Shown one piece after another: positions 1-27,000 of a stretch of 64,000 nt of DNA. The stretch comes from Chloropicon primus (taxonomy: Eukaryota). A program made the translations under genes and the position numbers. The notes under the pieces were generated by a model. That model made no database searches and was not told the DNA's origin. It worked only from the letters and a program-made list of their open reading frames with translations. The stretch spans positions 930,001 to 994,000 of the forward strand of contig CP060759.1 of NCBI GenBank assembly GCA_023205875.1, read 5' to 3'. The first letter of the stretch is position 1. Every line of letters begins with the position of its first letter.

Positions 1-3000
1 AACCATGATCCAATGCATGCTGTGACAACAACAATGCTGTCTTCTGCTATCAGATATCCAAACCATACAAATTCAAACCAAAGGTTCTTGAATGTCCTTA
101 ACAACCAGTCCGAGCTTTGCGCAGTCACTCCACTTCAACGGTGGGACCGCATGGATTGGTATTCCTCACAGGGCTATGGGAACGACATCTATGTGCCCTT
201 TGGATACTGGCTTCCAGACCTCTGGACCTTCCAACCTGATGCACTAAGCATGACTTCCGCAGAATCCCTTTATGTGGACCCACAAGGAAGGAAGCTCCTG
301 GAGGTCACATGGGAGGCCATGTACAACACTCCTCTATCTTCAAACAAACATGCCAGAACAAATACAGGCGTTTATGTAGGATGTATGTACACAGAGTACC
401 CACATATCCTGAAGGGGGCAAACATGGCAAACAATGCTGGTACAGGTACTGGAAGCGGCATTAGCTTCCTTTGTGGTCGTGTTTCTTATGTGATGGGCTT
501 CAAAGGACCATGCATCAGCATAGATACTGCATGTTCCTCCTCCCTTGCAGCAACTCACTTGGGCAGGACAGCCATTATAGCACATGAATGTGATACAGCA
601 ACAATAGCAGGAACAAATATAATGATTGCACCACAAACAACCCAAGGTGTTTGCAATTTGCAAGCCCTTGCCGTGGATGGAAGATGCAAAACCCTTGATG
701 CAACTGCAAATGGATATGGCCGTGCCGAAGCTATTGCTGCCGTAATCATTGCAAATGCAAACGATACACACACGAACATGCTCAAAATGCCTGTCAACAT
801 CGTTGCATCTTTTGTGAACCAAGATGGAAGATCAAGCAGTCTGACTGCACCAAATGGGCCATCACAGTCAACACTCATCTCATCTGCTTTGAGGCAAGCA
901 AATCTGAAGCCAGAACAAATCAACCATGTTGTCATGCATGGAACAGGAACACCTCTGGGTGACCCAATTGAGGTTGGTGCCCTGGGACAAGCATTCCATT
1001 CAGATGACAAAGTTCATATGCTTGCACTTGCTGCAGTCAAGGTTGCTTTCGGACATACAGAAGGAGCAGCAGGACTCACGGGCCTACTTAGTGCAATGCA
1101 GTCGTGTAGCACGTTATGCATTCAACCGGTTACCGCATGCAGAAACATGAATGTTCATGTGCAGGGTGCAATCAAAGATCATAGAGATGGGCACAAAAGA
1201 GTCACTTCTGCAAGGATTCAACAAGGTCCTTGGTCATTCACTTGTGATGAAAACAATGACAAAGCAATCGCAGGGACAAGCTCGTTTGGCATGAGCGGAG
1301 TCAACAGTCACGGGGTTGTTGAAGCAAAACTTGCAGGCCATACTTACAATGCGCAGAGTATTGCATGGAACAACAAGCAAGTACTCTTCCCAATGGTTGG
1401 GTGTGCATTTGTGAAGGCTTCCTACAAAGCATCTACAAAACAACACCAAGTATTTGCGATTCAAATCAAGGACCACAACCTTCTGAGCTACATGGTCATG
1501 GGGAAATCCATTTTACCAGGTGCAGGATTCATGGAACTGTCATCAGCCTCTGCACGAGCTATGCTTAATCCAAACGTCTTACGTGATCTCAAACCAGTGC
1601 TTGCAAAGATATCAATTCCAGCCCCGATGCAGTTGGAACCAAACAAACATCAAATGATGCAATGTACGGTGGACACAGTGACCGGACAAGTAGGACTGAA
1701 AAGTCACAAAACCTGGAATCTCCAAGCCATATGGAAGAAACCAGTCAAACACTTGCCAGAGCGCCAAACCACACACCAAGATCAAAACGAGTGGAACAAA
1801 GGCATCATGGGTATAATGCACCACAATCAAGCTGCACACACAGCCAATGCAATTGCAACAGTCGCCAAAACATCAAATGACCTCTATGATTACACCGTCA
1901 ACCCAGCTGTGGGCGACGCAAATCTACAGCTTGGTGCCGTGGAAAGCGTGATTCGTTTGGCGAGCCAAGACAATGCTAGTCAAGAAACGCAAGTACCAAC
2001 GGGTTGCCATGCCTATTACATGGGCGACCAGTCAGATGCTCCAGCAGCATACACGGCAGTCTGTCAGAATGGCTCCCAAGCTGGCATCTCAAGCCATAGA
2101 CTAAAAAGTCTATGTGAAGAGATCAACTGTGCCTCAGTTCTCAATTTGCAAACCAAAGCAGCATTTAGATTGCAAAGTGCTTTGAATGCAGCCAACAGCC
2201 AACAGAAAGTGCAAGAAAAGGACATGCTCTTATCGGCTTTGGTGTGGTCAGCCTGCTATGCGACCCCTCTGGACTGCGCTGCTCATCAAAATGCAATAAT
2301 CGCAGGATCAAGGGACGCACAAGAGAATGTGCTTCTCGTGAAACTTGGAGACGCGCAATCCAATTTGGAGCATCCTCTCAAGATTGCATGCAGAAATGCA
2401 GGAGCTCTCTATTCATCATCTCATGTGGATAGTCCTGAAATGCAAGAGTACCTGACAAACACCTCAAAGTCGGTCCACGTTGTTTGCCTTGTCTCGCACC
2501 AGGCAAATGTTGCAAAGCAACTTGTAGGCCTTGCCAACCTTGTCAAAGCAGTGAACAAGTCAAACATGGAATCACCTAGTATCACTGTGGTTTTCTTGGA
2601 TTCACAAACGACCATGAACGTCCAACACAACACCTCAAAAGCATTGTGGGGAGCATGCAGGACGATGAGAATGGAGTACCCATCCTTGCAATTGACAACC
2701 ATTCAAATGGATGCACACATGGACAAGAGTCAGGCAGCTCTTTACCTCGTGTCAGAAATCCAAAACAAACATTCAACTGAAAAGGAAGTCATGTACAAGA
2801 ATGCGACACGATACATCAATACCATTGTGGAGAAGTATCCTTCTGCATCACAGCATCTCTCCCTCAATCCACATCTGGAAAAGCTCCAGAGAGGATCATA
2901 TGTTATCACAGGAGGTCTTGGAGGTCTGGGCCTTGTGACCGCGCAACTTCTTGCAGATATGGGAGCGACAAGCATATCTCTCCTCTCAAGAAGTGGCATC

Positions 3001-6000
3001 ATTCAGCGCACGGACCAAAACCTTAATGCCATTCTCGACAAAGTAAGAGAGAAAGCCAATGTGGAGGTTATCGCATGTGATGTGAGCAAAGAAGATCATG
3101 TGCGCAATCTCTACACAAAGCAAAACCATCCTTGTGTGGGAATTATACATGCTGCCGGTGTCTTACGAGATGGCCTTGCTGCAAATCTCAACCATACTCA
3201 GGTCCAACAGGTATTTGACCCAAAGATCAGTGGCGCTTTGCATTTGCATCACAACACACTCCTGCAGCCATTGCAGGTATGCATCATGTTCTCCTCCATA
3301 GCTTCACTCTATGGAAACATTGGTCAGACCTCCTACAGTGCAGCAAATACCTATCTTGATACTTTGGCTGCTCTAAGGCAAAACCAAGGCCTTCCTGCGG
3401 TCAGCATACAATGGCCAGCAATATCTGGCATTGGCATGTGGGAAGGTCTATCAAGTGTCCACAAGAAAACAACACCGTTCACGCTGTCTGTCGAGGGAGC
3501 TATCACATCTCTCAATAAGATTGTGAAGGACCTTTCATCCTTCACAATCACAACCGTGACGATTTTACCAAGGTGGATGATCTACGGAACCAGGGAAAAG
3601 AACAAAGCACACATGGCAGCAAAGGCGGATCCAAATGAAATCCAGCGGCAGCCAACAAGCGGAAGAAGCCAGAGCGTCAAATTCACATCTGTAGCTGTGT
3701 TGACTTCCCAAGTGCAAAATACAATTGAGCAAGCAGTCATAGATACTATTGGAGAAACCATTGACACGGAAAGTCCTCTCATGGAAGCAGGAGTCGACTC
3801 GCTTGCTTCATCAGAGCTTATCAACAAGATCAATGATGACATGGGAACCTCTTTGGGGCCCACAATCTTGTTCGACTATCCAACAATTCAGGATCTCACA
3901 CAGCACCTTGTGCAGACCCTCGAAGGACCTGACGCTACAGATCACGCCATTGAGGCTGTGGAGCGCATCCCAAACCATGATCCAATGCATGCTGTGACAA
4001 CAACAATGCTGTCTTCTGCTATCAGATATCCAAACCATACAAATTCAAACCAAAGGTTCTTGAATGTCCTTAACAACCAATCCGAGCTTTGCTCAGTCAC
4101 TCCACTTCAACGGTGGGACCGCATGGATTGGTATTCCTCACAGGGCTATGGGAACGACATCTATGTGCCCTTTGGATACTGGCTTCCAGACCTCTGGACA
4201 TTCCAACCTGATGCACTAAGCATGACTTCCGCAGAATCCCTTTATGTGGACCCACAAGGAAGGAAGCTCCTGGAGGTCACATGGGAGGCCATGTACAACA
4301 CTCCTCTATCTTCAAACAAACATGCCAGAACAAATACAGGTGTTTATGTAGGATGTTGTCAACAAGAATTTCAGCACATGCACTACTATCCTGAGAAAAA
4401 AGCACTCCTTACTGGATATAGCTTCCTTTGTGGTCGTGTTTCTTATGTGATGGGCTTCAAAGGACCATGCATCAGCATAGATACTGCATGTTCCTCCTCG
4501 CTTGCAGCAACTCACTTGGGCAGGACAGCCATTATAGCACATGAATGCGATACAGCAACAATAGCAGGAACAAATATAATGATTGCACCACAAACAACGC
4601 AAGCTATTTGCAATTTGCAAGCCCTTGCCGTGGATGGAAGATGCAAAACCCTTGATGCAACTGCAAATGGATATGGCCGTGCCGAAGCTATTGCTGCCGT
4701 AATCATTGCAAATGCAAACGATACACACACGAACATGCTCAAAATGCCTGTCAACATCGTTGCATCTTTTGTGAACCAAGATGGAAGATCAAGCAGTCTG
4801 ACTGCACCAAATGGGCCATCACAGTCAACACTCATCTCATCTGCTTTGAGGCAAGCAAATCTGAAGCCAGAACAAATCAACCATGTTGTCATGCATGGAA
4901 CAGGAACACCTCTGGGTGACCCAATTGAGGTTGGTGCCCTGGGACAAGCATTCCATTCAGATGACAAAGTTCATATGCTTGCACTTGCTGCAGTCAAGGT
5001 TGCTTTCGGACATACAGAAGGAGCAGCAGGACTCACGGGCCTACTTAGTGCAATGCAGTCGTGTAGCACGTTATGCATTCAACCGGTTACCGCATGCAGA
5101 AACATGAATGTTCATGTGCAGGGTGCAATCAAAGATCATAGAGATGGGCACAAAAGAGTCACTTCTGCAAGGATTCAACAAGGTCCTTGGTCATTCACTT
5201 GTGATGAAAACAATGACAAAGCAATCGCAGGGACAAGCTCGTTTGGCATGAGCGGAGTCAACAGTCACGGGGTTGTTGAAGCAAAACTTGCAGGTCATAC
5301 TTACAATGCGCAGAGTATTGCATGGAACAACAAGCAAGTACTCTTCCCAATGGTTGGGTGTGCATTTGTGAAGGCTTCCTACAAAGCATCTACAAAACAA
5401 CACCAAGTATTTGCGATTCAAATCAAGGACCACAACCTTCTGAGCTACATGGTCATGGGGAAATCCATTTTACCAGGTGCAGGATTCATGGAACTGTCAT
5501 CAGCCTCTGCACGAGCTATGCTCAATCCAAACGTCTTACGTGATCTCAAACCAGTGCTTGCAAAGATATCAATTCCAGCCCCGATGCAGTTGGAACCAAA
5601 CAAACATCAAATGATGCAATGTACGGTGGACACAGTGACCGGACAAGTAGGACTGAAAAGTCACAAAACCTGGAATCTCCAAGCCATATGGAAGAAACCA
5701 GTCAAACACTTGCCAGAGCGCCAAACCACACACCAAGATCAAAACGAGTGGAACAAAGGCATCATGGGTATAATGCACCACAATCAAGCTGCACACACAG
5801 CCAATGCAATTGCAACAGTCGCCAAAACATCAAATGACCTCTATGATTACACCGTCAACCCAGCTGTGGGCGACGCAAATCTACAGCTTGGTGCCGTGGA
5901 AAGCGTGATTCGTTTGGCGAGCCAAGACAATGCTAGTCAAGAAACGCAAGTACCAACGGGTTGCCATGCCTATTACATGGACGACCAGTCAGATGCTCCA

Positions 6001-9000
6001 GCAGCATACACGGCAGTCTGTCAGAATGGCTCCCAAGCTGGCATCTCAAGCCATAGACTAAAAAGTCTATGTGAAGAGATCAACTGTGCCTCAGTTCTCA
6101 ATTTGCAAACCAAAGCAGCATTTAGATCGCAAAGTGCTTTGAATGCAGCCAACAGCCAACAGAAAGTGCAAGAAAAGGACATGCTCTTATCGGCTTTGGT
6201 GTGGTCAGCCTGCTATGCGACCCCTCTGGACTGCGCTGCTCATCAAAATGCAATAATCGCAGGATCAAGGGACGCACAAGAGAATGTGCTTCTCGTGAAA
6301 CTTGGAGACGCGCAATCCAATTTGGAGCATCCTCTCAAGATTGCATGCAGAAATGCAGGAGCTCTCTATTCATCATCTCATGTGGATAGTCCTGAAATGC
6401 AAGAGTACCTGACAAACACCTCAAAGTCGGTCCACGTTGTTTGCCTTGTCTCGCACCAAGCAAATGTTGCAAAGCAACTTGTAGGCCTTGCCAACCTTGT
6501 CAAAGCGGTGAACAAGTCAAACATGGAATCACCTAGTATCACTGTGGTTTTCTTGGATTCACAAACGACCATGAACGTCCAACACAACACCTCAAAAGCA
6601 TTGTGGGGAGCATGCAGGACGATGAGAATGGAGTACCCATCCTTGCAATTGACAACCATTCAAATGGATGCACACATGGACAAGAGTCAGGCAGCTCTTT
6701 ACCTCGTGTCAGAAATCCAAAACAAACATTCAACTGAAAAGGAAGTCATGTACAAGAATGCGACACGATACATCAATACCATTGTGGAGAAGTATCCTTC
6801 TGCATCACAGCATCTCTCCCTCAATCCACATCTGGAAAAGCTCCAGAGAGGATCATATGTTATCACAGGAGGTCTTGGAGGTCTGGGCCTTGTGACCGCG
6901 CAACTTCTTGCAGATATGGGAGCGACAAGCATATCTCTCCTCTCAAGAAGTGGCATCATTCAGCGCACGGACCAAAACCTTAATGCCATTCTCGACAAAG
7001 TAAGAGAGAAAGCCAATGTGGAGGTTATCGCATGTGATGTGAGCAAAGAAGATCATGTGCGCAATCTCTACACAAAGCAAAACCATCCTTGTGTGGGAAT
7101 TATACATGCTGCCGGTGTCTTACGAGATGGCCTTGCTGCAAATCTCAACCATACTCAGGTCCAACAGGTATTTGACCCAAAGATCAGTGGCGCTTTGCAT
7201 TTGCATCACAACACACTCCTGCAGCCATTGCAGGTATGCATCATGTTCTCCTCCATAGCTTCACTCTATGGAAACATTGGTCAGACCTCCTACAGTGCAG
7301 CAAATACCTATCTTGATACATTGGCTGCTCTAAGGCAAAACCAAGGCCTTCCTGCGGTCAGCATACAATGGCCAGCAATATCTGGCATTGGCATGTGGGA
7401 AGGTCTATCAAGTGTCCACAAGAAAACAACACCGTTCACGCTGTCTATCGAGGGAGCTATCACATCTCTCAATAAGATTGTGAAGGACCTTTCATCCTTC
7501 ACAATCACAACCGTGACGATTTTACCAAGGTGGATGATCTACGGAACCAGGGAAAAGAACAAAGCACACATGGCAGCAAAGGCGGATCCAAATGAAATCC
7601 AGCGGCAGCCAACAAGCGGAAGAAGCCAGAGCGTCAAATTCACATCTGTAGCTGTGTTGACTTCCCAAGTGCAAAATACAATTGAGCAAGCAGTCATAGA
7701 TACTATTGGAGAAACCATTGACACGGAAAGTCCTCTCATGGAAGCAGGAGTCGACTCGCTTGCTTCATCAGAGCTTATCAACAAGATCAATGATGACATG
7801 GGAACCTCTTTGGCGCCCACAATCTTGTTCGACTATCCAACAATTCAGGATCTCACACAGCACCTTGTGCAGACCCTCAAAGGACCTGACGCTACAGATC
7901 ACGCCATTGAGGCTGTGGAGCGCATCCCAAACCATGATCCAATGCATGCTGTGACAACAACAATGCTGTCTTCTGCTATCAGATATCCAAACCATACAAA
8001 TTCAAACCAAAGGTTCTTGAATGTCCTTAACAACCAGTCCGAGCTTTGCTCAGTCACTCCACTTCAACGGTGGGACCGCATGGATTGGTATTCCTCACAG
8101 GGCTATGGGAACGACATCTATGTGCCCTTTGGATACTGGCTTCCAGACCTCTGGACCTTCCAACCTGATGCACTAAGCATGACTTCCGCAGAATCCCTTT
8201 ATGTGGACCCACAAGGAAGGAAGCTCCTGGAGGTCACATGGGAGGCCATGTACAACACTCCTCTATCTTCAAACAAACATGCCAGAACAAATACAGGTGT
8301 TTATGTAGGATGTTGTCAACAAGACTTTCAGCACATGCACTACTATCCTGAGAAAAAAGCACTCCTTACTGGATATAGCTTCCTTTGTGGTCGTGTTTCT
8401 TATGTGATGGGCTTCAAAGGACCATGCATCAGCATAGATACTGCATGTTCCTCCTCGCTTGCAGCAACTCACTTGGGCAGGACAGCCATTATAGCACATG
8501 AATGTGATACAGCAACAATAGCAGGAACAAATATAATGATTGCACCACAAACAACGCAAGCTATTTGCAATTTGCAAGCCCTTGCCGTGGATGGAAGATG
8601 CAAAACCCTTGATGCAACTGCAAATGGATATGGCCGTGCCGAAGCTATTGCTGCCGTAATCATTGCAAATGCAAACGATACACAAACGAACATGCTCAAA
8701 ATGCCTGTCAACATCGTTGCATCTTTTGTGAACCAAGATGGAAGATCAAGCAGTCTGACTGCACCAAATGGGCCATCACAGTCAACACTCATCTCATCTG
8801 CTTTGAGGCAAGCAAATCTGAAGCCAGAACAAATCAACCATGTTGTCATGCATGGAACAGGAACACCTCTGGGTGACCCAATTGAGGTTGGTGCCCTGGG
8901 ACAAGCATTCCATTCAGATGACAAAGTTCATATGCTTGCACTTGCTGCAGTCAAGGTTGCTTTTGGACATACAGAAGGAGCAGCAGGACTCACGGGCCTA

Positions 9001-12000
9001 CTTAGTGCAATGCAGTCGTGTAGCACGTTATGCATTCAACCGGTTACCGCATGCAGAAACATGAATGTTCATGTGCAGGGTGCAATCAAAGATCATAGAG
9101 ATGGGCACAAAAGAGTCACTTCTGCAAGGATTCAACAAGGTCCTTGGTCATTCACTTGTGATGAAAACAATGACAAAGCAATCGCAGGGACAAGCTCGTT
9201 TGGCATGAGCGGAGTCAACAGTCACGGGGTTGTTGAAGCAAAACTTGCAGGCCATACTTACAATGCGCAGAGTATTGCATGGAACAACAAGCAAGTACTC
9301 TTCCCAATGGTTGGGTGTGCATCTGTGAAGGCTTCCTACAAAGCACCTACAAAACAACACCAAGCATTTGCGATTCAAATCAAGGACCACAACCTGCTCG
9401 ACCACATGGTCATGGGGAAATCCATTTTACCAGGTGCAGGATTCATGGAACTGTCATCAGCCTCTGCACGAGCTATGCTTAATCCAAACGTCTTACGTGA
9501 TCTCAAACCAGTGCTTGCAAAGATATCAATTCCAGCCCCGATGCAGTTGGAACCAAACAAACATCAAATGATGCAATGTACGGTGGACACAGTGACCGGA
9601 CAAGTAGGACTGAAAAGTCACAAAACCTGGAATCTCCAAGCCATATGGAAGAAACCAGTCAAACACTTGCCAGAGCGCCAAACCACACACGAAGATCAAA
9701 ACGAGTGGAACAAAGGCATCATGGGTATAATGCACCACAATCAAGCTGCACACACAGCCAATGCAATTGCAACAGTCGCCAAAACATCAAATGACCTCTA
9801 TGATTACACCGTCAACCCAGCTGTGGGCGACGCAAATCTACAGCTTGGTGCCGTGGAAAGCGTGATTCGTTTGGCGAGCCAAGACAATGCTAGTCAAGAA
9901 ACGCAAGTACCAACGGGTTGCCATGCCTATTACATGGGCGACCAGTCAGATGCTCCAGCAGCATACACGGCAGTCTGTCAGAATGGCTCCCAAGCTGGCA
10001 TCTCAAGCCATAGACTAAAAAGTCTATGTGAAGAGATCAACTGTGCCTCAGTTCTCAATTTGCAAACCAAAGCAGCATTTAGATTGCAAAGTGCTTTGAA
10101 TGCAGCCAACAGCCAACAGAAAGTGCAAGAAAAGGACATGCTCTTATCGGCTTTGGTGTGGTCAGCCTGCTATGCGACCCCTCTGGACTGCGCTGCTCAT
10201 CAAAATGCAATAATCGCAGGATCAAGGGACGCACAAGAGAATGTGCTTCTCGTGAAACTTGGAGACGCGCAATCCAATTTGGAGCATCCTCTCAAGATTG
10301 CATGCAGAAATGCAGGAGCTCTCTATTCATCATCTCATGTGGATAGTCCTGAAATGCAAGAGTACCTGACAAACACCTCAAAGTCGGTCCACGTTGTTTG
10401 CCTTGTCTCGCACCAAGCAAATGTTGCAAAGCAACTTGTAGGCCTTGCCAACCTTGTCAAAGCGGTGAACAAGTCAAACATGGAATCACCTAGTATCACT
10501 GTGGTTTTCTTGGATTCACAAACGACCATGAACGTCCAACACAACACCTCAAAAGCATTGTGGGGAGCATGCAGGACGATGAGAATGGAGTACCCATCCT
10601 TGCAATTGACAACCATTCAAATGGATGCACACATGGACAAGAGTCAGGCAGCTCTTTACCTCGTGTCAGAAATCCAAAACAAACATTCAACTGAAAAGGA
10701 AGTCATGTACAAGAATGCGACACGATACATCAATACCATTGTGGAGAAGTATCCTTCTGCATCACAGCATCTCTCCCTCAATCCACATCTGGAAAAGCTC
10801 CAGAGAGGATCATATGTTATCACAGGAGGTCTTGGAGGTCTGGGTCTTGTGACCGCGCAACTTCTTGCAGATATGGGAGCGACAAGCATATCTCTCCTCT
10901 CAAGAAGTGGCATCATTCAGCGCACGGACCAAAACCTTAATGCCATTCTCGACAAAGTAAGAGAGAAAGCCAATGTGGAGGTTATCGCATGTGATGTGAG
11001 CAAAGAAGATCATGTGCGCAATCTCTACACAAAGCAAAACCATCCTTGTGTGGGAATTATACATGCTGCCGGTGTCTTACGAGATGGCCTTGCTGCAAAT
11101 CTCAACCATACTCAGGTCCAACAGGTATTTGACCCAAAGATCAGTGGCGCTTTGCATTTGCATCACAACACACTCCTGCAGCCATTGCAGGTATGCATCA
11201 TGTTCTCCTCCATAGCTTCACTCTATGGAAGCATTGGTCAGACCTCCTACAGTGCAGCAAATACCTATCTTGATACTTTGGCTGCTCTAAGGCAAAACCA
11301 AGGCCTTCCTGCGGTCAGCATACAATGGCCAGCAATATCTGGCATTGGCATGTGGGAAGGTCTATCAAGTGTCCACAAGAAAACAACACCGTTCACGCTG
11401 TCTGTCGAGGGAGCTATCACATCTCTCAATAAGATTCTGAAGGACCTTTCATCCTTCACAATCACAACCGTGACGATTTTACCAAGGTGGATGATCTACG
11501 GAACCAGGGAAAAGAACAAAGCACACATGGCAGCAAAGGCGGATCCAAATGAAATCCAGCGGCAGCCAACAAGCGGAAGAAGCCAGAGCGTCAAATTCAC
11601 ATCTGTAGCTGTGTTGACTTCCCAAGTGCAAAATACAATTGAGCAAGCAGTCATAGATACTATCGGAGAAACCATTGACACGGAAAGTCCTCTCATGGAA
11701 GCAGGAGTCGACTCGCTTGCTTCATCAGAGCTTATCAACAAGATCAATGATGACATGGGAACCTCTTTGGGGCCCACAATCTTGTTCGACTATCCAACAA
11801 TTCAGGATCTCACACAGCACCTTGTGCAGACCCTCAAAGGACCTGACGCTACAGATCACGCCATTGAGGCTGTGGAGCGCATCCCAAACCATGATCCAAT
11901 GCATGCTGTGACAACAACAATGCTGTCTTCTGCTATCAGATATCCAAACCATACAAATTCAAACCAAAGGTTCTTGAATGTCCTTAACAACCAATCCGAG

Positions 12001-15000
12001 CTTTGCGCAGTCACTCCACTTCAACGGTGGGACCGCATGGATTGGTATTCCTCACAGGGCTATGGGAACGACATCTATGTGCCCTTTGGATACTGGCTTC
12101 CAGACCTCTGGACATTCCAACCTGATGCACTAAGCATGACTTCCGCAGAATCCCTTTATGTGGACCCACAAGGAAGGAAGCTCCTGGAGGTCACATGGGA
12201 GGCCATGTACAACACTCCTCTATCTTCAAACAAACATGCCAGAACAAATACAGGTGTTTATGTAGGATGTATGTACACAGAGTATCCACATATCCTGAAG
12301 GGGGCAAATATGACAAACAATGCTGGTACAGGTACTGGAAGCGGCATTAGCTTCCTTTGTGGTCGTGTTTCTTATGTGATGGGCTTCAAAGGACCATGCA
12401 TCAGCATAGATACTGCATGTTCCTCCTCGCTTGCAGCAACTCACTTGGGCAGGACAGCCATTATAGCACATGAATGTGATACAGCAACAATAGCAGGAAC
12501 AAATATAATGATTGCACCACAAACAACGCAAGCTATTTGCAATTTGCAAGCCCTTGCCGTGGATGGAAGATGCAAAACCCTTGATGCAACTGCAAATGGA
12601 TATGGCCGTGCCGAAGCTATTGCTGCCGTAATCATTGCAAATGCAAACGATACATACACGAACATGCTCAAAATGCCTGTCAACATCGTTGCATCTTTTG
12701 TGAACCAAGATGGAAGATCAAGCAGTCTGACTGCACCAAATGGGCCATCACAGTCAACACTCATCTCATCTGCTTTGAGGCAAGCAAATCTGAAGCCAGA
12801 ACAAATCAACCATGTTGTCATGCATGGAACAGGAACACCTCTGGGTGACCCAATTGAGGTTGGTGCCCTGGGACAAGCATTCCATTCAGATGACAAAGTT
12901 CATATGCTTGCACTTGCTGCAGTCAAGGTTGCTTTCGGACATACAGAAGGAGCAGCAGGACTCACGGGCCTACTTAGTGCAATGCAGTCGTGTAGCACGT
13001 TATGCATTCAACCGGTTACCGCATGCAGAAACATGAATGTTCATGTGCAGGGTGCAATCAAAGATCATAGAGATGGGCACAAAAGAGTCACTTCTGCAAG
13101 GATTCAACAAGGTCCTTGGTCATTCACTTGTGATGAAAACAATGACAAAGCAATCGCAGGGACAAGCTCGTTTGGCATGAGCGGAGTCAACAGTCACGGG
13201 GTTGTTGAAGCAAAACTTGCAGGCCATACTTACAATGCGCAGAGTATTGCATGGAATAACAGGCAAGTACTCTTCCCAATGGTTGGGTGTGCATCTGTGA
13301 AGGCTTCCTACAAAGCACCTACAAAACAACACCAAGCATTTGCGATTCAAATCAAGGACCACAACCTGCTCGACCACATGGTCATGGGGAAATCCATTTT
13401 ACCAGGTGCAGGATTCATGGAACTGTCATCAGCCTCTGCACGAGCTATGCTTAATCCAAACGTCTTACGTGATCTCAAACCAGTGCTTGCAAAGATATCA
13501 ATTCCAGCCCCGATGCAGTTGGAACCAAACAAACATCAAATGATGCAATGTACGGTGGACACAGTGACCGGACAAGTAGGACTGAAAAGTCACAAAACCT
13601 GGAATCTCCAAGCCATATGGAAGAAACCAGTCAAACACTTGCCAGAGCGCCAAACCACACACGAAGATCAAAACGAGTGGAACAAAGGCATCATGGGTAT
13701 AATGCACCACAATCAAGCTGCACACACAGCCAATGCAATTGCAACAGTCGCCAAAACATCAAATGACCTCTATGATTACACCGTCAACCCAGCTGTGGGC
13801 GACGCAAATCTACAGCTTGGTGCCGTGGAAAGCGTGATTCGTTTGGCGAGCCAAGACAATGCTAGTCAAGAAACGCAAGTACCAACGGGTTGCCATGCCT
13901 ATTACATGGGCGACCAGTCAGATGCTCCAGCAGCATACACGGCAGTCTGTCAGAATGGCTCCCAAGCTGGCATCTCAAGCCATAGACTAAAAAGTCTATG
14001 TGAAGAGATCAACTGTGCCTCAGTTCTCAATTTGCAAACCAAAGCAGCATTTAGATTGCAAAGTGCTTTGAATGCAGCCAACAGCCAACAGAAAGTGCAA
14101 GAAAAGGACATGCTCTTATCGGCTTTGGTGTGGTCAGCCTGCTATGCGACCCCTCTGGACTGCGCTGCTCATCAAAATGCAATAATCGCAGGATCAAGGG
14201 ACGCACAAGAGAATGTGCTTCTCGTGAAACTTGGAGACGCGCAATCCAATTTGGAGCATCCTCTCAAGATTGCATGCAGAAATGCAGGAGCTCTCTATTC
14301 ATCATCTCATGTGGATAGTCCTGAAATGCAAGAGTACCTGACAAACACCTCAAAGTCGGTCCACGTTGTTTGCCTTGTCTCGCACCAAGCAAATGTTGCA
14401 AAGCAACTTGTAGGCCTTGCCAACCTTGTCAAAGCGGTGAACAAGTCAAACATGGAATCACCTAGTATCACTGTGGTTTTCTTGGATTCACAAACGACCA
14501 TGAACGTCCAACACAACACCTCAAAAGCATTGTGGGGAGCATGCAGGACGATGAGAATGGAGTACCCATCCTTGCAATTGACAACCATTCAAATGGATGC
14601 ACACATGGACAAGAGTCAGGCAGCTCTTTACCTCGTGTCAGAAATCCAAAACAAACATTCAACTGAAAAGGAAGTCATGTACAAGAATGCGACACGATAC
14701 ATCAATACCATTGTGGAGAAGTATCCTTCTGCATCACAGCATCTCTCCCTCAATCCACATCTGGAAAAGCTCCAGAGAGGATCATATGTTATCACAGGAG
14801 GTCTTGGAGGTCTGGGTCTTGTGACCGCGCAACTTCTTGCAGATATGGGAGCGACAAGCATATCTCTCCTCTCAAGAAGTGGCATCATTCAGCGCACGGA
14901 CCAAAACCTTAATGCCATTCTCGACAAAGTAAGAGAGAAAGCCAATGTGGAGGTTATCGCATGTGATGTGAGCAAAGAAGATCATGTGCGCAATCTCTAC

Positions 15001-18000
15001 ACAAAGCAAAACCATCCTTGTGTGGGAATTATACATGCTGCCGGTGTCTTACGAGATGGCCTTGCTGCAAATCTCAACCATACTCAGGTCCAACAGGTAT
15101 TTGACCCAAAGATCAGTGGCGCTTTGCATTTGCATCACAACACACTCCTGCAGCCATTGCAGGTATGCATCATGTTCTCCTCCATAGCTTCACTCTATGG
15201 AAGCATTGGTCAGACCTCCTACAGTGCAGCAAATACCTATCTTGATACATTGGCTGCTCTAAGGCAAAACCAAGGCCTTCCTGCGGTCAGCATACAATGG
15301 CCAGCAATATCTGGCATTGGCATGTGGGAAGGTCTATCAAGTGTCCACAAGAAAACAACACCATTTACTTTGGCAGTGACAGATGTTGTGAAGGTGATGA
15401 AACATCTTGTTTCAAGTGTCCCAATTCCTGCACCAAACATTGCTATGCTGCCACAAAGCCTCGTTCACGACGTAAATGTTGAGAGGAAGCAAAACGATAA
15501 AAACATGGACCCTGTTGTTGATACAAAGGATCCGTCTTGGTATGAATTGCCTTCTCAATGGAAGCAGTTGCAAGTGACTAAGCTCTCCAACAACTTCAGT
15601 GAAGCAACTTCGATGCAGCATCTCAACACATTAGATTGTGAAGAAAATGAAGTGGTAGTACGGGTCATCTATGCAGGAGTCAATGCTAGTGATGTCAACT
15701 TCAGTGCTGGAAAGTACCATGGAAGTGAAGCAGCAGCAACGAAAGCTCTCCCATTTGCAGCTGGACTTGAAGGTGTAGGTCTTGTGGTTAAGAAAGGAAG
15801 CAAAACAAAGATCTCTATTGGGAGTCCCGTGGCATGCATGGCACCTGGTTGTTATTCAGACTTCCTCACAATCAAGGAAAGCAGTCTACTTACTATCTCT
15901 GAGATACAAATTGAGACAGTTGCACTGCTAACATCTGGACTCACAGCAACGCTTGCGCTTTCTCAAGTCGGCCAAATGAAAAATGGTGGTGAAACCGTCC
16001 TAGTTACAGCAGCCGCTGGTGGCACCGGTCAATTTGCTGTTCAGCTTGCAAAACTGGCAGGTAACCGTGTTATAGCAACATGCAGCAACCCAAGAAAGAA
16101 AGATCTTCTTGAAGAACTCGGAGCAGAACGTGTCATCAACTACAAATTGGAAGATGTCCAAAAAGTTCTCAAAGAAGAATACCCACGTGGCATTTCCCTT
16201 GTATATGATGGAGTTGGAGGGAAATTGCTTCAAAACATTCTTCCAGCTGTGTCGCCACTGGGTAGAATTGTCACCATTGGCGCCGTGTCAACATACCAAG
16301 CAGATGAAGAATCTGCGTTGAAACAGGAGCACATGCAAAGTTTGTACCAACGTGGAGTGTCCATCTTGGGCTTTTACTTGCCCGCATACAAGAGTCAGTT
16401 CCAAAAGTACCTCAATCAACTCTGTGACCTTCATCGCACTAAGAAACTTAGGGTACACGTGGATGTCAAGAAACGATATTGCGGGGCTGAAATGGCCCCT
16501 GATGCTGTCAAAGATCTCCACTCTGGAAAGACTCAGGGGAAGGTTGTTGTGCAAATACCACAACATGTGCCAAAAACATTCAAAGACCTTTCTGCTCAGC
16601 TCAAAACTAATTACAGCCTGAACACGAATGCAGTACCAAAAAGCAAAGACAGCAACAAAATGCAAGTTGACGTTGTCTCCCTGACTTCCCAAGTGCAAAA
16701 AACAATTGAGCAAGCAGTCATAGATACTATTGGAGAAACCATTGACACGGAAAGTCCTCTCATGGAAGCAGGAGTCGACTCGCTTGCTTCATCAGAGCTT
16801 ATCAACAAGATCAATGATGACATGGGAACCTCTTTGGCGCCCACAATCTTGTTCGACTATCCAACAATTCAGGATCTCACACAGCACCTTGTGCAGACCC
16901 TCAAAGGACCTGACGCTACAGATCACGCCATTGAGGCTGTGGAGCGCATCCCAAACCATGATCCAATGCATGCTGTGACAACAACAATGCTGTCTTCTGC
17001 TATCAGATATCCAAACCATACAAATTCAAACCAAAGGTTCTTGAATGTCCTTAACAACCAATCCGAGCTTTGCGCAGTCACTCCACTTCAACGGTGGGAC
17101 CGCATGGATTGGTATTCCTCACAGGGCTATGGGAACGACATCTATGTGCCCTTTGGATACTGGCTTCCAGACCTCTGGACATTCCAACCTGATGCACTAA
17201 GCATGACTTCCGCAGAATCCCTTTATGTGGACCCACAAGGAAGGAAGCTCCTGGAGGTCACATGGGAGGCCATGTACAACACTCCTCTATCTTCAAACAA
17301 ACATGCCAGAACAAATACAGGTGTTTATGTAGGATGCATGTCCACAGAGTACCCACATATCCTGAAGGGGGCAAACATGGCAAACAATGCTGGTACAGGT
17401 ACTGGAAGCGGCATTAGCTTCCTTTGTGGTCGTGTTTCTTATGTGATGGGCTTCAAAGGACCATGCATCAGCATAGATACTGCATGTTCCTCCTCCCTTG
17501 CAGCAACTCACTTGGGCAGGACAGCCATTATAGCACATGAATGTGATACAGCAACAATAGCAGGAACAAATATAATGATTGCACCACAAACAACGCAAGC
17601 TATTTGCAATTTGCAAGCCCTTGCCGTGGATGGAAGATGCAAAACCCTTGATGCAACTGCAAATGGATATGGCCGTGCCGAAGCTATTGCTGCCGTAATC
17701 ATTGCAAATGCAAACGATACATACACGAACATGCTCAAAATGCCTGTCAACATCGCTGCATCTTTTGTGAACCAAGATGGAAGATCAAGCAGTCTGACTG
17801 CACCAAATGGGCCATCACAGTCAACACTCATCTCATCTGCTTTGAGGCAAGCAAATCTGAAGCCAGAACAAATCAACCATGTTGTCATGCATGGAACAGG
17901 AACACCTCTGGGTGACCCAATTGAGGTTGGTGCCCTGGGACAAGCATTCCATTCAGATGACAAAGTTCATATGCTTGCACTTGCTGCAGTCAAGGTTGCT

Positions 18001-21000
18001 TTTGGACATACAGAAGGAGCAGCAGGACTCACGGGCCTACTTAGTGCAATGCAGTCGTGTAGCACGTTATGCATTCAACCGGTTACCGCATGCAGAAACA
18101 TGAATGTTCATGTGCAGGGTGCAATCAAAGATCATAGAGATGGGCACAAAAGAGTCACTTCTGCAAGGATTCAACAAGGTCCTTGGTCATTCACTTGTGA
18201 TGAAAACAATGACAAAGCAATCGCAGGGACAAGCTCGTTTGGCATGAGCGGAGTCAACAGTCACGGGGTTGTTGAAGCAAAACTTGCAGGCCATACTTAC
18301 AATGCGCAGAGTATTGCATGGAACAACAAGCAAGTACTCTTCCCAATGGTTGGGTGTGCATTTGTGAAGGCTTCCTACAAAGCATCTACAAAACAACACC
18401 AAGTATTTGCGATTCAAATCAAGGACCACAACCTGCTCGACCACATGGTCATGGGGAAATCCATTTTACCAGGTGCAGGATTCATGGAACTGTCATCAGC
18501 CTCTGCACGAGCTATGCTCAATCCAAACGTCTTACGTGATCTCAAACCAGTGCTTGCAAAGATATCAATTCCAGCCCCGATGCAGTTGGAACCAAACAAA
18601 CATCAAATGATGCAATGTACGGTGGACACAGTGACCGGACAAGTAGGACTGAAAAGTCACAAAACCTGGAATCTCCAAGCCATATGGAAGAAACCAGTCA
18701 AACACTTGCCAGAGCGCCAAACCACACACGAAGATCAAAACGAGTGGAACAAAGGCATCATGGGTATAATGCACCACAATCAAGCTGCACACACAGCCAA
18801 TGCAATTGCAACAGTCGCCAAAACATCAAATGACCTCTATGATTACACCGTCAACCCAGCTGTGGGCGACGCAAATCTACAGCTTGGTGCCGTGGAAAGC
18901 GTGATTCGTTTGGCGAGCCAAGACAATGCTAGTCAAGAAACGCAAGTACCAACGGGTTGCCATGCCTATTACATGGGCGACCAGTCAGATGCTCCAGCAG
19001 CATACACGGCAGTCTGTCAGAATGGCTCCCAAGCTGGCATCTCAAGCCATAGACTAAAAAGTCTATGTGAAGAGATCAACTGTGCCTCAGTTCTCAATTT
19101 GCAAACCAAAGCAGCATTTAGATCGCAAAGTGCTTTGAATGCAGCCAACAGCCAACAGAAAGTGCAAGAAAAGGACATGCTCTTATCGGCTTTGGTGTGG
19201 TCAGCCTGCTATGCGACCCCTCTGGACTGCGCTGCTCATCAAAATGCAATAATCGCAGGATCAAGGGACGCACAAGAGAATGTGCTTCTCGTGAAACTTG
19301 GAGACGCGCAATCCAATTTGGAGCATCCTCTCAAGATTGCATGCAGAAATGCAGGAGCTCTCTATTCATCATCTCATGTGGATAGTCCTGAAATGCAAGA
19401 GTACCTGACAAACACCTCAAAGTCGGTCCACGTTGTTTGCCTTGTCTCGCACCAAGCAAATGTTGCAAAGCAACTTGTAGGCCTTGCCAACCTTGTCAAA
19501 GCGGTGAACAAGTCAAACATGGAATCACCTAGTATCACTGTGGTTTTCTTGGATTCACAAACGACCATGAACGTCCAACACAACACCTCAAAAGCATTGT
19601 GGGGAGCATGCAGGACGATGAGAATGGAGTACCCATCCTTGCAATTGACAACCATTCAAATGGATGCACACATGGACAAGAGTCAGGCAGCTCTTTACCT
19701 CGTGTCAGAAATCCAAAACAAACATTCAACTGAAAAGGAAGTCATGTACAAGAATGCGACACGATACATCAATACCATTGTGGAGAAGTATCCTTCTGCA
19801 TCACAGCATCTCTCCCTCAATCCACATCTGGAAAAGCTCCAGAGAGGATCATATGTTATCACAGGAGGTCTTGGAGGTCTGGGTCTTGTGACCGCGCAAC
19901 TTCTTGCAGATATGGGAGCGACAAGCATATCTCTCCTCTCAAGAAGTGGCATCATTCAGCGCACGGACCAAAACCTTAATGCCATTCTCGACAAAGTAAG
20001 AGAGAAAGCCAATGTGGAGGTTATCGCATGTGATGTGAGCAAAGAAGATCATGTGCGCAATCTCTACACAAAGCAAAACCATCCTTGTGTGGGAATTATA
20101 CATGCTGCCGGTGTCTTACGAGATGGCCTTGCTGCAAATCTCAACCATACTCAGGTCCAACAGGTATTTGACCCAAAGATCAGTGGCGCTTTGCATTTGC
20201 ATCACAACACACTCCTGCAGCCATTGCAGGTATGCATCATGTTCTCCTCCATAGCTTCACTCTATGGAAGCATTGGTCAGACCTCCTACAGTGCAGCAAA
20301 TACCTATCTTGATACTTTGGCTGCTCTAAGGCAAAACCAAGGCCTTCCTGCGGTCAGCATACAATGGCCAGCAATATCTGGCATTGGCATGTGGGAAGGT
20401 CTATCAAGTGTCCACAAGAAAACAACACCGTTCACGCTGTCTGTCGAGGGAGCTATCACATCTCTCAATAAGATTCTGAAGGACCTTTCATCCTTCACAA
20501 TCACAACCGTGACGATTTTACCAAGGTGGATGATCTACGGAACCAGGGAAAAGAACAAAGCACACATGGCAGCAAAGGCGGATCCAAATGAAATCCAGCG
20601 GCAGCCAACAAGCGGAAGAAGCCAGAGCGTCAAATTCACATCTGTAGCTGTGTTGACTTCCCAAGTGCAAAAAACAATTGAGCAAGCAGTCATAGATACT
20701 ATTGGAGAAACCATTGACACGGAAAGTCCTCTCATGGAAGCAGGAGTCGACTCGCTTGCTTCATCAGAGCTTATCAACAAGATCAATGATGACATGGGAA
20801 CCTCTTTGGGGCCCACAATCTTGTTCGACTATCCAACAATTCAGGATCTCACACAGCATCTTGTGCAGACCCTCAAAGGACCTGACGCTACAGATCACGC
20901 CATTGAGGCTGTGGAGCGCATCCCAAACCATGATCCAATGCATGCTGTGACAACAACAATGCTGTCTTCTGCTATCAGATATCCAAACCATACAAATTCA

Positions 21001-24000
21001 AACCAAAGGTTCTTGAATGTCCTTAACAACCAATCCGAGCTTTGCGCAGTCACTCCACTTCAACGGTGGGACCGCATGGATTGGTATTCCTCACAGGGCT
21101 ATGGGAACGACATCTATGTGCCCTTTGGATACTGGCTTCCAGACCTCTGGACATTCCAACCTGATGCACTAAGCATGACTTCCGCAGAATCCCTTTATGT
21201 GGACCCACAAGGAAGGAAGCTCCTGGAGGTCACATGGGAGGCCATGTACAACACTCCTCTATCTTCAAACAAACATGCCAGAACAAATACAGGTGTTTAT
21301 GTAGGATGCATGTCCACAGAGTACCCACATATCCTGAAGGGGGCAAACATGGCAAACAATGCTGGTACAGGTACTGGAAGCGGCATTAGCTTCCTTTGTG
21401 GTCGTGTTTCTTATGTGATGGGCTTCAAAGGACCATGCATCAGCATAGATACTGCATGTTCCTCCTCCCTTGCAGCAACTCACTTGGGCAGGACAGCCAT
21501 TATAGCACATGAATGTGATACAGCAACAATAGCAGGAACAAATATAATGATTGCACCACAAACAACGCAAGGTGTTTGCAATTTGCAAGCCCTTGCCGTG
21601 GATGGAAGATGCAAAACCCTTGATGCAACTGCAAATGGATATGGCCGTGCCGAAGCTATTGCTGCCGTAATCATTGCAAATGCAAACGATACACACACGA
21701 ACATGCTCAAAATGCCTGTCAACATCGTTGCATCTTTTGTGAACCAAGATGGAAGATCAAGCAGTCTGACTGCACCAAATGGGCCATCACAGTCAACACT
21801 CATCTCATCTGCTTTGAGGCAAGCAAATCTGAAGCCAGAACAAATCAACCATGTTGTCATGCATGGAACAGGAACACCTCTGGGTGACCCAATTGAGGTT
21901 GGTGCCCTGGGACAAGCATTCCATTCGGATGACAAAGTTCATATGCTTGCACTTGCTGCAGTCAAGGTTGCTTTCGGACATACAGAAGGAGCAGCAGGAC
22001 TCACGGGCCTACTTAGTGCAATGCAGTCGTGTAGCACGTTATGCATTCAACCGGTTACCGCATGCAGAAACATGAATGTTCATGTGCAGGGTGCAATCAA
22101 AGATCATAGAGATGGGCACAAAAGAGTCACTTCTGCAAGGATTCAACAAGGTCCTTGGTCATTCACTTGTGATGAAAACAATGACAAAGCAATCGCAGGG
22201 ACAAGCTCGTTTGGCATGAGCGGAGTCAACAGTCACGGGGTTGTTGAAGCAAAACTTGCAGGCCATACTTACAATGCGCAGAGTATTGCATGGAATAACA
22301 GGCAAGTACTCTTCCCAATGGTTGGGTGTGCATTTGTGAAGGCTTCCTACAAAGCATCTACAAAACAACACCAAGTATTTGCGATTCAAATCAAGGACCA
22401 CAACCTGCTCGACCACATGGTCATGGGGAAATCCATTTTACCAGGTGCAGGATTCATGGAACTGTCATCAGCCTCTGCACGAGCTATGCTCAATCCAAAC
22501 GTCTTACGTGATCTCAAACCAGTGCTTGCAAAGATATCAATTCCAGCCCCGATGCAGTTGGAACCAAACAAACATCAAATGATGCAATGTACGGTGGACA
22601 CAGTGACCGGACAAGTAGGACTGAAAAGTCACAAAACCTGGAATCTCCAAGCCATATGGAAGAAACCAGTCAAACACTTGCCAGAGCGCCAAACCACACA
22701 CGAAGATCAAAACGAGTGGAACAAAGGCATCATGGGTATAATGCACCACAATCAAGCTGCACACACAGCCAATGCAATTGCAACAGTCGCCAAAATATCA
22801 AATGACCTCTATGATTACACCGTCAACCCAGCTGTGGGCGACGCAAATCTACAGCTTGGTGCCGTGGAAAGCGTGATTCGTTTGGTGAGCCAAGACAATG
22901 CTAGTCAAGAAACGCAAGTACCAACGGGTTGCCATGCCTATTACATGGGCGACCAGTCAGATGCTCCAGCAGCATACACGGCAGTCTGTCAGAATGGCTC
23001 CCAAGCTGGCATCTCAAGCCATAGACTAAAAAGTCTATGTGAAGAGATCAACTGTGCCTCAGTTCTCAATTTGCAAACCAAAGCAGCATTTAGATCGCAA
23101 AGTGCTTTGAATGCAGCCAACAGCCAACAGAAAGTGCAAGAAAAGGACATGCTCTTATCGGCTTTGGTGTGGTCAGCCTGCTATGCGACCCCTCTGGACT
23201 GCGCTGCTCATCAAAATGCAATAATCGCAGGATCAAGGGACGCACAAGAGAATGTGCTTCTCGTGAAACTTGGAGACGCGCAATCCAATTTGGAGCATCC
23301 TCTCAAGATTGCATGCAGAAATGCAGGAGCTCTCTATTCATCATCTCATGTGGATAGTCCTGAAATGCAAGAGTACCTGACAAACACCTCAAAGTCGGTC
23401 CACGTTGTTTGCCTTGTCTCGCACCAAGCAAATGTTGCAAAGCAACTTGTAGGCCTTGCCAACCTTGTCAAAGCGGTGAACAAGTCAAACATGGAATCAC
23501 CTAGTATCACTGTGGTTTTCTTGGATTCACAAACGACCATGAACGTCCAACACAACACCTCAAAAGCATTGTGGGGAGCATGCAGGACGATGAGAATGGA
23601 GTACCCATCCTTGCAATTGACAACCATTCAAATGGATGCACACATGGACAAGAGTCAGGCAGCTCTTTACCTCGTGTCAGAAATCCAAAACAAACATTCA
23701 ACTGAAAAGGAAGTCATGTACAAGAATGCGACACGATACATCAATACCATTGTGGAGAAGTATCCTTCTGCATCACAGCATCTCTCCCTCAATCCACATC
23801 TGGAAAAGCTCCAGAGAGGATCATATGTTATCACAGGAGGTCTTGGAGGTCTGGGTCTTGTGACCGCGCAACTTCTTGCAGATATGGGAGCGACAAGCAT
23901 ATCTCTCCTCTCAAGAAGTGGCATCATTCAGCGCACGGACCAAAACCTTAATGCCATTCTCGACAAAGTAAGAGAGAAAGCCAATGTGGAGGTTATCGCA

Positions 24001-27000
24001 TGTGATGTGAGCAAAGAAGATCATGTGCGCAATCTCTACACAAAGCAAAACCATCCTTGTGTGGGAATTATACATGCTGCCGGTGTCTTACGAGATGGCC
24101 TTGCTGCAAATCTCAACCATACTCAGGTCCAACAGGTATTTGACCCAAAGATCAGTGGCGCTTTGCATTTGCATCACAACACACTCCTGCAGCCATTGCA
24201 GGTATGCATCATGTTCTCCTCCATAGCTTCACTCTATGGAAGCATTGGTCAGACCTCCTACAGTGCAGCAAATACCTATCTTGATACTTTGGCTGCTCTA
24301 AGGCAAAACCAAGGCCTTCCTGCGGTCAGCATACAATGGCCAGCAATATCTGGCATTGGCATGTGGGAAGGTCTATCAAGTGTCCACAAGAAAACAACAC
24401 CATTTACTTTGGCAGTGACAGATGTTGTGAAGGTGATGAAACATCTTGTTTCAAGTGTCCCAATTCCTGCACCAAACATTGCTATGCTGCCACAAAGCCT
24501 CGTTCACGACGTAAATGTTGAGAGGAAGCAAAACGATAAAAACATGGACCCTGTTGTTGATACAAAGGATCCGTCTTGGTATGAATTGCCTTCTCAATGG
24601 AAGCAGTTGCAAGTGACTAAGCTCTCCAACAACTTCAGTGAAGCAACTTCGATGCAGCATCTCAACACATTAGATTGTGAAGAAAATGAAGTGGTAGTAC
24701 GGGTCATCTATGCAGGAGTCAATGCTAGTGATGTCAACTTCAGTGCTGGAAAGTACCATGGAAGTGAAGCAGCAGCAACGAAAGCTCTCCCATTTGCAGC
24801 TGGACTTGAAGGTGTAGGTCTTGTGGTTAAGAAAGGAAGCAAAACAAAGATCTCTATTGGGAGTCCCGTGGCATGCATGGCACCTGGTTGTTATTCAGAC
24901 TTCCTCACAATCAAGGAAAGCAGTCTACTTACTATCTCTGAGATACAAATTGAGACAGTTGCACTGCTAACATCTGGACTCACAGCAACGCTTGCGCTTT
25001 CTCAAGTCGGCCAAATGAAAAATGGTGGTGAAACCGTCCTAGTTACAGCAGCCGCTGGTGGCACCGGTCAATTTGCTGTTCAGCTTGCAAAACTGGCAGG
25101 TAACCGTGTTATAGCAACATGCAGCAACCCAAGAAAGAAAGATCTTCTTGAAGAACTCGGAGCAGAACGTGTCATCAACTACAAATTGGAAGATGTCCAA
25201 AAGTTCTCAAAGAAGAATACCCACGTGGCATTTCCCTTGTATATGATGGAGTTGGAGGGAAATTGCTTCAAAACATTCTTCCAGCTGTGTCGCCACTGGG
25301 TAGAATTGTCACCATTGGCGCCGTGTCAACATACCAAGCAGATGAAGAATCTGCGTTGAAACAGGAGCACATGCAAAGTTTGTACCAACGTGGAGTGTCC
25401 ATCTTGGGCTTTTACTTGCCCGCATACAAGAGTCAGTTCCAAAAGTACCTCAATCAACTCTGTGACCTTCATCGCACTAAGAAACTTAGGGTACACGTGG
25501 ATGTCAAGAAACGATATTGCGGGGCTGAAATGGCCCCTGATGCTGTCAAAGATCTCCACTCTGGAAAGACTCAGGGGAAGGTTGTTGTGCAAATACCACA
25601 ACATGTGCCAAAAACATTCAAAGACCTTTCTGCTCAGCTCAAAACTAATTACAGCCTGAACACGAATGCAGTACCAAAAAGCAAAGACAGCAACAAAATG
25701 CAAGTTGACGTTGTCTCCCTGACTTCCCAAGTGCAAAAAACAATTGAGCAAGCAGTCATAGATACTATTGGAGAAACCATTGACACGGAAAGTCCTCTCA
25801 TGGAAGCAGGAGTCGACTCGCTTGCTTCATCAGAGCTTATCAACAAGATCAATGATGACATGGGAACCTCTTTGGCGCCCACAATCTTGTTCGACTATCC
25901 AACAATTCAGGATCTCACACAGCACCTTGTGCAGACCCTCAAAGGACCTGACGCTACAGATCACGCCATTGAGGCTGTGGAGCGCATCCCAAACCATGAT
26001 CCAATGCATGCTGTGACAACAACAATGCTGTCTTCTGCTATCAGATATCCAAACCATACAAATTCAAACCAAAGGTTCTTGAATGTCCTTAACAACCAAT
26101 CCGAGCTTTGCGCAGTCACTCCACTTCAACGGTGGGACCGCATGGATTGGTATTCCTCACAGGGCTATGGGAACGACATCTATGTGCCCTTTGGATACTG
26201 GCTTCCAGACCTCTGGACATTCCAACCTGATGCACTAAGCATGACTTCCGCAGAATCCCTTTATGTGGACCCACAAGGAAGGAAGCTCCTGGAGGTCACA
26301 TGGGAGGCCATGTACAACACTCCTCTATCTTCAAACAAACATGCCAGAACAAATACAGGTGTTTATGTAGGATGCATGTCCACAGAGTACCCACATATCC
26401 TGAAGGGGGCAAACATGGCAAACAATGCTGGTACAGGTACTGGAAGCGGCATTAGCTTCCTTTGTGGTCGTGTTTCTTATGTGATGGGCTTCAAAGGACC
26501 ATGCATCAGCATAGATACTGCATGTTCCTCCTCGCTTGCAGCAACTCACTTGGGCAGGACAGCCATTATAGCACATGAATGTGATACAGCAACAATAGCA
26601 GGAACAAATATAATGATTGCACCACAAACAACGCAAGGTGTTTGCAATTTGCAAGCCCTTGCCGTGGATGGAAGATGCAAAACCCTTGATGCAACTGCAA
26701 ATGGATATGGCCGTGCCGAAGCTATTGCTGCCGTAATCATTGCAAATGCAAACGATACATACACGAACATGCTCAAAATGCCTGTCAACATCGTTGCATC
26801 TTTTGTGAACCAAGATGGAAGATCAAGCAGTCTGACTGCACCAAATGGGCCATCACAGTCAACACTCATCTCATCTGCTTTGAGGCAAGCAAATCTGAAG
26901 CCAGAACAAATCAACCATGTTGTCATGCATGGAACAGGAACACCTCTGGGTGACCCAATTGAGGTTGGTGCCCTGGGACAAGCATTCCATTCAGATGACA

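Follow-up and report, generated by a model that had tools for sequence, protein, structure and literature searches.

Results

The window analysed here is a stretch of 64,000 nucleotides of Chloropicon primus (contig CP060759.1, positions 930,001 to 994,000 of the forward strand), and an AT-less modular PKS fills it from position 1 to 31916. A first ORF on the forward strand (1..25359) is open at its 5' end and encodes modules 1-5 and most of module 6. The continuation (25263..31916, forward strand) holds the end of ER6, ACP6, module 7 (KS-DH-KR-ER-ACP) and a terminal thioesterase region (31053..31916, forward strand), with which the line closes in the repeated KS-(DH)-KR-(ER)-ACP order of a modular type I PKS. 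The seven modules start at 1, 3973, 7930, 11887, 16954, 20926 and 25992. Modules 1, 2, 3 and 5 are built as KS-DH-KR-ACP, and modules 4, 6 and 7 have an ER added after the KR. The ER block of module 4 (15363..16700, forward strand) shows no differences from that of module 7 (29468-30805), while the ER block of module 6 (24402-25738) differs by one base from both. An A run in ER6 (25199..25203, forward strand) lacks one base, which splits the PKS ORF and is probably an assembly error. We found no AT Pfam match in the five PKS stretches scanned and no GHSxG motif in either ORF, and a separate AT was not seen among 15 other ORFs scanned in the window. All module KRs contain LRD, keeping the third residue (Asp) of the LDD motif, which suggests from sequence that all are B-type; for KRs associated with a DH this prediction has only moderate reliability (PMC11228615).

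Over its last 1372 amino acids the PKS matches a protein annotated as Chloropicon primus at all but 2 residues. The genes neighbouring the PKS are eukaryotic. According to the accessible part of the genome paper, type I PKS genes form a family of 12 in C. primus, and PKS genes are named there as low-GC regions (PMC6731263). The nearest relatives are fragments with 45-63% identity. Sequencing runs hold module types that the window lacks: a DH with a different N-half, whose loose end lies at 1646/5603, a Val allele of the KR at 7259-7260 and, from 3472 on, a third version of the KR C-terminal block. The PKS gene therefore probably extends upstream.

In their KS-DH-KR core the seven modules are mutually 99.5-99.6% identical, apart from one patch in the DH. 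Modules 1-2 read LLSY at the place where modules 3-7 read LLDH. The DH1 island (1482..1489, forward strand) and the DH2 island (5439..5446, forward strand) have the same sequence and change His to Tyr and Asp to Ser, with two further synonymous changes. The string CTTCTGAGCTAC occurs in the window only at 1480 and 5437, in modules 1-2, and CTGCTCGACCAC is found in modules 3-7, in DH3 at 9394..9405 (forward strand) and in further copies at 13366, 18433, 22405 and 27471. In module positions the five differences lie at 1482 and 1485 (both synonymous), 1486, 1487 and 1489. The original prediction had described these five substitutions, two of them synonymous, and the LLSY/LLDH split correctly; the span is 8 bp, not 10. 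Its near-invariant flanks were also found: in the 10 SY x LDH module pairs identity outside the island is 99.47-99.63%, and identical runs extend for 30-712 bp to the left and 76-287 bp to the right. When the aligned modules are compared, the shared core of 3013 bp contains 32 variable sites, 5 of them inside the 8-bp island, and only 1 of 100,000 uniform placements in a shuffle test brought 5 sites within 8 bp. The proposed clustering of divergence above background is thus borne out.

The exchanged His can be assigned to the catalytic position of the DH, as had been proposed. In an alignment with AmbC, LLDHMV falls on VLDHVV (E 0.0011). When 150 homologous DH domains were aligned to a profile, 128 carried His in this column, 4 carried Tyr and 9 had a gap; the column before it was Asp in 115 of the 150. 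A model of the module 3 DH, built from 36 sequences (pLDDT 75.6; 32 for the single-sequence model), matches the curacin and other PKS DHs, best the CurF DH (E 6.5e-11, TM 0.60). The HxxxGxxxxP/Asp dyad of the DH is described in the available portion of an earlier report (PMC4551226), and the LLDH and NPAVGD motifs of this dyad are both seen here. Two PDB titles call His-to-Phe mutants of CurK/CurJ inactive. In the DHs of modules 1-2 the catalytic His is replaced by Tyr, the sequence mark of a DH0 domain, while the catalytic Asp motif and the remainder of the SY domain are intact. Our search of openly available papers found no precedent for a His-to-Tyr exchange in a DH. From these sequences we infer that the SY DHs of modules 1-2 are inactive.

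A second patch lies in the KS of the module that follows each SY module. The gatekeeper-loop islands of KS2 (4357..4418, forward strand), after SY module 1, and of KS3 (8314..8375, forward strand), after SY module 2, have 62 bp in place of 77 bp. They start at residue 2 of the four residues after TGVYVG, and their flanks are near-identical. The loop of KS2-3 is 5 residues shorter in KSs that are otherwise about 99% identical, and the island is too diverged for one point event. The four gatekeeper residues are CMYT or CMST in KS1 and KS4-7 and CCQQ in KS2-3. In bacterial matches the same four positions read VMYH or TNGQ. KS1 and KS4-7 have the Met at position 2 that marks the VMYH type, with Thr instead of His at position 4. 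KS2-3 lack the Asn-2 of TNGQ and share only Gln-4 with it; the CCQQ KSs may nevertheless work like TNGQ-type KSs. Met-2 of VMYH helps PikKS3 to pick dehydrated over D-beta-hydroxy chains (PMC11321453).

We tallied Met-2 in the internal KSs of fetched homologues with the upstream module in the same protein, leaving out the window's own proteins. It was present in 23 of 45 KSs after an intact DH without ER and in none of 67 after KR-only or dead-DH modules. After DH plus ER it was absent (0/9), and after modules without a detected KR it occurred in 3 of 20. In AT-less proteins alone the counts were 11 of 29 after an intact DH versus 0 of 18 after KR-only or dead-DH modules. Since the homologues are related and were chosen by similarity, the Fisher values of this tally are only indicative. 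On these counts Met-2 marks an active upstream DH with high specificity but modest sensitivity. The loss of Met-2 exactly one module downstream of each SY module is independent support for the reading that the DH is off, and it strengthens the proposal, supported in its core, that modules 1-2 would leave beta-hydroxyls. The absence of Met is no proof of hydroxyl acceptance, because among the 29 AT-less KSs that follow an intact DH, 18 have no Met either. The position-3 Y/S and GV/AI variants of the KS, considered as markers of upstream ER status, did not track it.

Two further sites, THQDQ/THEDQ in the DH linker (1777, copy at 5734, forward strand) and GNIGQ/GSIGQ in the KR (3317, copy at 7274, forward strand), separate modules 1-2 from modules 3-7, as does the synonymous site 2931. 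The described co-segregation of these two sites with the island holds within the window only, and a functional link to the switch finds little backing. The KR Asn is present in 35 of 178 homologous KRs and in P0123, a 50% identical relative whose KR precedes an ER-type linker, and on these grounds we rejected KR N/S as a marker of the DH-off state. The Gln of the DH site maps, by a row in the accessible part of the published variant table, to a module preceding a module-1-type (Met) KS. On these comparisons KR N/S and DH Q/E are probably not functional markers, and likely represent ancestral states outside the switch.

The history of the modules is not tree-like. Of 231 pairs of informative sites 101 fail the four-gamete test, and six informative sites are incompatible with the island split, the nearest of them (1566) 77 bp away. 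When same-split sites within 50 bp are merged, 17 events remain. Of the 945 trees scored, the best explains them in 30 steps; the 13 extra steps compare with 0.1-0.35 recurrences expected without recombination. Outside the island, 16 of 3396 sites distinguish module 1 from module 2, and 12 distinguish module 2 from module 5 or 7. Modules 1-2 are hence not sisters, and the pattern is a poor match for one mutated module having been duplicated recently. The synonymous background is 0.9%, so that chance differences at both of two specified synonymous sites have a probability of about 8e-5, and the two silent changes of the island are unlikely to be independent point mutations. Incompatible site patterns among paralogues, as expected under concerted evolution, are present, although assembly mixing may contribute and the mosaic could be inflated by diploidy or repeat mis-polishing. 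That divergence peaks form at selected sites under conversion is established theory, as set out in the accessible text of PMC3924837. The non-tree-like history of the modules fits conversion plus selection. Of the suggestion that an old allele has been kept by selection amid conversion, the conversion part agrees with this mosaic, and persistence of the allele is the best reading of the sequences. Two JGI metagenome scans and homologue searches found no diverged SY relative, and the age of the allele thus rests on indirect grounds.

We looked for both patches in independent records of the locus. Neither SY nor CCQQ was seen directly in any of them. Logan contigs across the island in runs X2, X3, X5 and X7 read LDH, and such contigs lose minority alleles. 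They also collapse the repeat and mix alleles (X1 LDH+Q+N, X2 LDH+E+N, X5 LDH+Q+S), and their depths are not additive, for which reason we did not use them for copy number or for the absence of SY. In run X6, which may not be independent, 9 of the 14 ends of seven depth-2 contigs adjoin known variable sites, one of them at 1481/1482, which is a weak hint of the SY allele. In the part of the published variant table that could be consulted, 10 of 12 rows for A3770_06p45120/45130 match sites that vary between modules, with the same bases (PMC6731263). The mapping used an offset fitted from site spacing, and the table has a minimum frequency of 20% (PMC6731263 Supplementary Data 7). Neither island is found in that part of the table at this 20% minimum frequency (PMC6731263). 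The published assembly at the locus appears much shorter and split by an indel; either the repeat was collapsed in it, or the number of modules varies between strains.

Discussion

Here, we describe two short patches, set one module apart, in an otherwise homogenised PKS. The patches are real, and they, their positions, the one-module offset and the non-tree-like mosaic are direct observations; judged from sequence, the patches are probably functional. The explanation that we favour, at a probability of roughly 0.65, is that conversion homogenises the modules while selection keeps the patches that set the DH state and the KS gating. Repeated gene conversion would keep the seven modules nearly identical. 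The 8-bp SY patch removes the catalytic His in modules 1-2, which would leave beta-hydroxyls, and the matching loop patch in the next KS would admit the hydroxylated chains. Conversion tracts that overwrite the His/Tyr codon or the KS loop would be purged by selection, and nearby synonymous differences would survive as a divergence peak. Observations that speak against this explanation include the confinement of the island's synonymous differences to one flank of the His codon and the retention of Met in KS5 and KS7 after ER modules, against 0 of 9 homologues. A bolder proposal, to which we give somewhat less than an even chance, is that micro-islands programme a eukaryotic assembly line: the 8-bp patch would switch the DH off, the 62/77-bp loop alone, in a KS that is otherwise identical, would suffice to change gating from enoyl to hydroxyacyl chains, and selection would keep the two patches in register across the module boundary as conversion shuffles the sequence between them.

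Among the alternatives, we consider it unlikely that one recent complex mutation, either multi-nucleotide or a compensated -1/+1 frameshift, killed one DH and was copied by duplication, with no long-term selection. The island can indeed be parsed into 2 substitutions and two indels that compensate each other, changes also lie close together at 647/649 and at 1371/1376, and modules 1-2 have three further sites in common. An equally short indel reading is, however, possible for 10.7% of random 5-in-8 changes, and no template-switch donor of more than 6 bp exists locally; a special frameshift origin and a template-switch donor for the island were both tested and are unsupported. Moreover, modules 1 and 2 are no closer to each other than to the LDH modules, and such a mutation does not account for the KS island of the following module, which is far more diverged.

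It also seems quite improbable that the two patches are recent imports, brought in on short conversion tracts whose donor is a divergent module or paralogue outside the window. In favour of this stand the 12 type I PKS genes of C. primus given in the accessible part of PMC6731263 and the divergent blocks that the runs show joined to common sequence and that the window lacks (DH N-half, KR Val, KR C-terminal). Against this, two independent imports would be needed, both in register, and the window contains no further SY 12-mer within 1 mismatch, the one match with 2 mismatches being unrelated. The functional outcome of an import would be the same as under homogenisation with selected patches.

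The near-perfect tandem repeat in a diploid raises the concern that the patches or the mosaic are artefacts of assembly or haplotype. The one-base loss in ER6 hints at residual error, the published locus appears much shorter and split by an indel, and SY was not seen in the run contigs. Yet both patches are in frame, occur twice each, sit at functional residues and are paired; the published variant rows largely agree with the between-module sites (10 of 12), and the contig ends of run X6 adjoin variable sites, one at 1481/1482, a weak point. We regard an artefact as improbable. A further reading, in which the SY domain is more than a dead DH or its loss is bypassed (by a structural role, other chemistry or dehydration in the next module), leaving no hydroxyl, is very improbable: its intact Asp motif and remainder, and the inactivity of some motif-intact DHs reported in the available text of PMC4551226, would allow it, but intactness is expected from conversion alone and Met-2 is lost in step in the downstream KS.

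Several known systems share features with homogenisation combined with selected patches, mycolactone synthase being the closest. In the accessible part of its description, mycolactone synthase (Mls) of Mycobacterium ulcerans is similar in that its domains are 98.7-100% identical, active and inactive DHs coexist and conversion is invoked (PMC2569948); unlike the PKS described here it is bacterial and cis-AT, with whole-domain swaps. Most Mls KSs have an aromatic residue at position 2 and are thought to be non-specific (PMC11321453), whereas here the KS island is matched to the upstream DH. VMYH/TNGQ gatekeeping and the updated module boundary are alike in using the same four positions after TGVxxG, in Met-2 after an active DH and in a KS that tracks upstream processing domains. 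However, VMYH and TNGQ come from actinomycete cis-AT KSs that differ throughout, while CMYT/CMST and CCQQ stand here in KSs that are about 99% identical. The multimodular chlorophyte trans-AT PKSs with duplicated modules (for example OluPKS3) are likewise AT-less and giant, with modules 89-98% similar; the portion of that paper available to us invokes duplication, without mention of 'gene conversion' or description of specificity islands (PMC4661987).

Gene conversion is widespread in PKSs, as the accessible parts of three reports indicate (PMC8256042; PMC12391348; PMC13500794). GRINS, as defined in the available text, are duplicated regions of more than 500 bp and more than 80% identity in one PKS, as here (PMC8256042). 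The PKS of the window is not a GRINS, its mean absolute GC skew of 0.095 being below the threshold of 0.15 and the skews uncorrelated (test values 0.095 and 0.159, r 0.14). Exon 5 of the red/green opsins, in the accessible part of PMC3924837, also has a narrow divergence peak at functional residues in homogenised paralogues; the peak described here differs in spanning 8 bp, in lying between modules of one gene and in being paired with a partner-domain peak. Our literature search, which covered openly available papers and a minority of their supplements, found no paper describing these islands. Each ingredient is thus known, and their pairing as sub-domain islands in a homogenised eukaryotic PKS appears to be new.

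Engineers of assembly lines still ask which residues of a KS are enough to determine its gatekeeping. A four-residue swap in PikKS3 shifted selectivity only partly (ratio 148 to 3; PMC11321453). The C. primus PKS offers a natural minimal pair for gatekeeping, with KSs that are about 99% identical, differ by one loop and stand behind dead or live DHs. The locus would likewise illustrate very sharply how selection against conversion forms divergence peaks. If the patches are sufficient and are kept in register, the product could be reprogrammed from one strain to another by short conversion tracts. On the assumption of malonyl extenders and an intact ER6, the product released by the thioesterase is predicted to end in OH, OH, ene, saturated, ene, saturated, saturated, which yields a structure prediction for the product of an abundant marine picoalga.

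Variation within the polyketide synthase

The PKS region (window 1-31916) has a GC content of 46%, compared with 51-62% in the remaining window, and a positive AT skew. PMC6731263 also notes PKS regions of low GC. Smaller clusters, each of variable sites that divide the modules alike, lie at module positions 384/389, 423/427, 647/649, 1371/1376 and 1409-1451. They often combine a replacement with an adjoining synonymous change, and several fall in KS tunnel regions. Across the seven modules, these clusters did not track upstream ER status.

The sequencing runs X2, X3 and X5 contain loose ends and alternative letters at 1646/5603, 7259-7260 and 3472-3540. In these runs we found a divergent DH N-half and, for the KR, a Val allele and a third C-terminal block, all without counterpart in the window. 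Their joins to the common sequence are sharp, as elsewhere, and the extra blocks likely derive from upstream modules.

The three ER blocks (15363-16700, 24402-25738 and 29468-30805) are each placed 3' of the KR, not within it, and no substitution separates them from one another. A one-base loss in an A run (25199-25203) inside the ER of module 6 splits the PKS; if real, the assembly line would end before ACP6. The public record QDZ21995.1 (window 27697-31916), annotated as 'alcohol dehydrogenase', covers the last DH-half-KR-ER-ACP-TE part of the PKS. Just upstream of this region an insertion is called at 94.6%, which suggests a frameshift error there in the public assembly.

A candidate intein in REV3

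On the + strand, the ORF of DNA polymerase zeta (REV3; 35166-41330) carries an intein-like insert of 364 aa (39120-40211) that interrupts the polymerase at YGD/TDS. The insert begins with Ser, ends with His-Asn and contains LAGLIDADG-like motifs, recognised by eye. It matches Pfam Intein_splicing (E 2e-4), and its TIGR01443 score exceeds the model cut-off. The word 'intein' does not occur in the eight papers listed by our literature search. The insert may be a nuclear REV3 intein, and as such may merit separate study.
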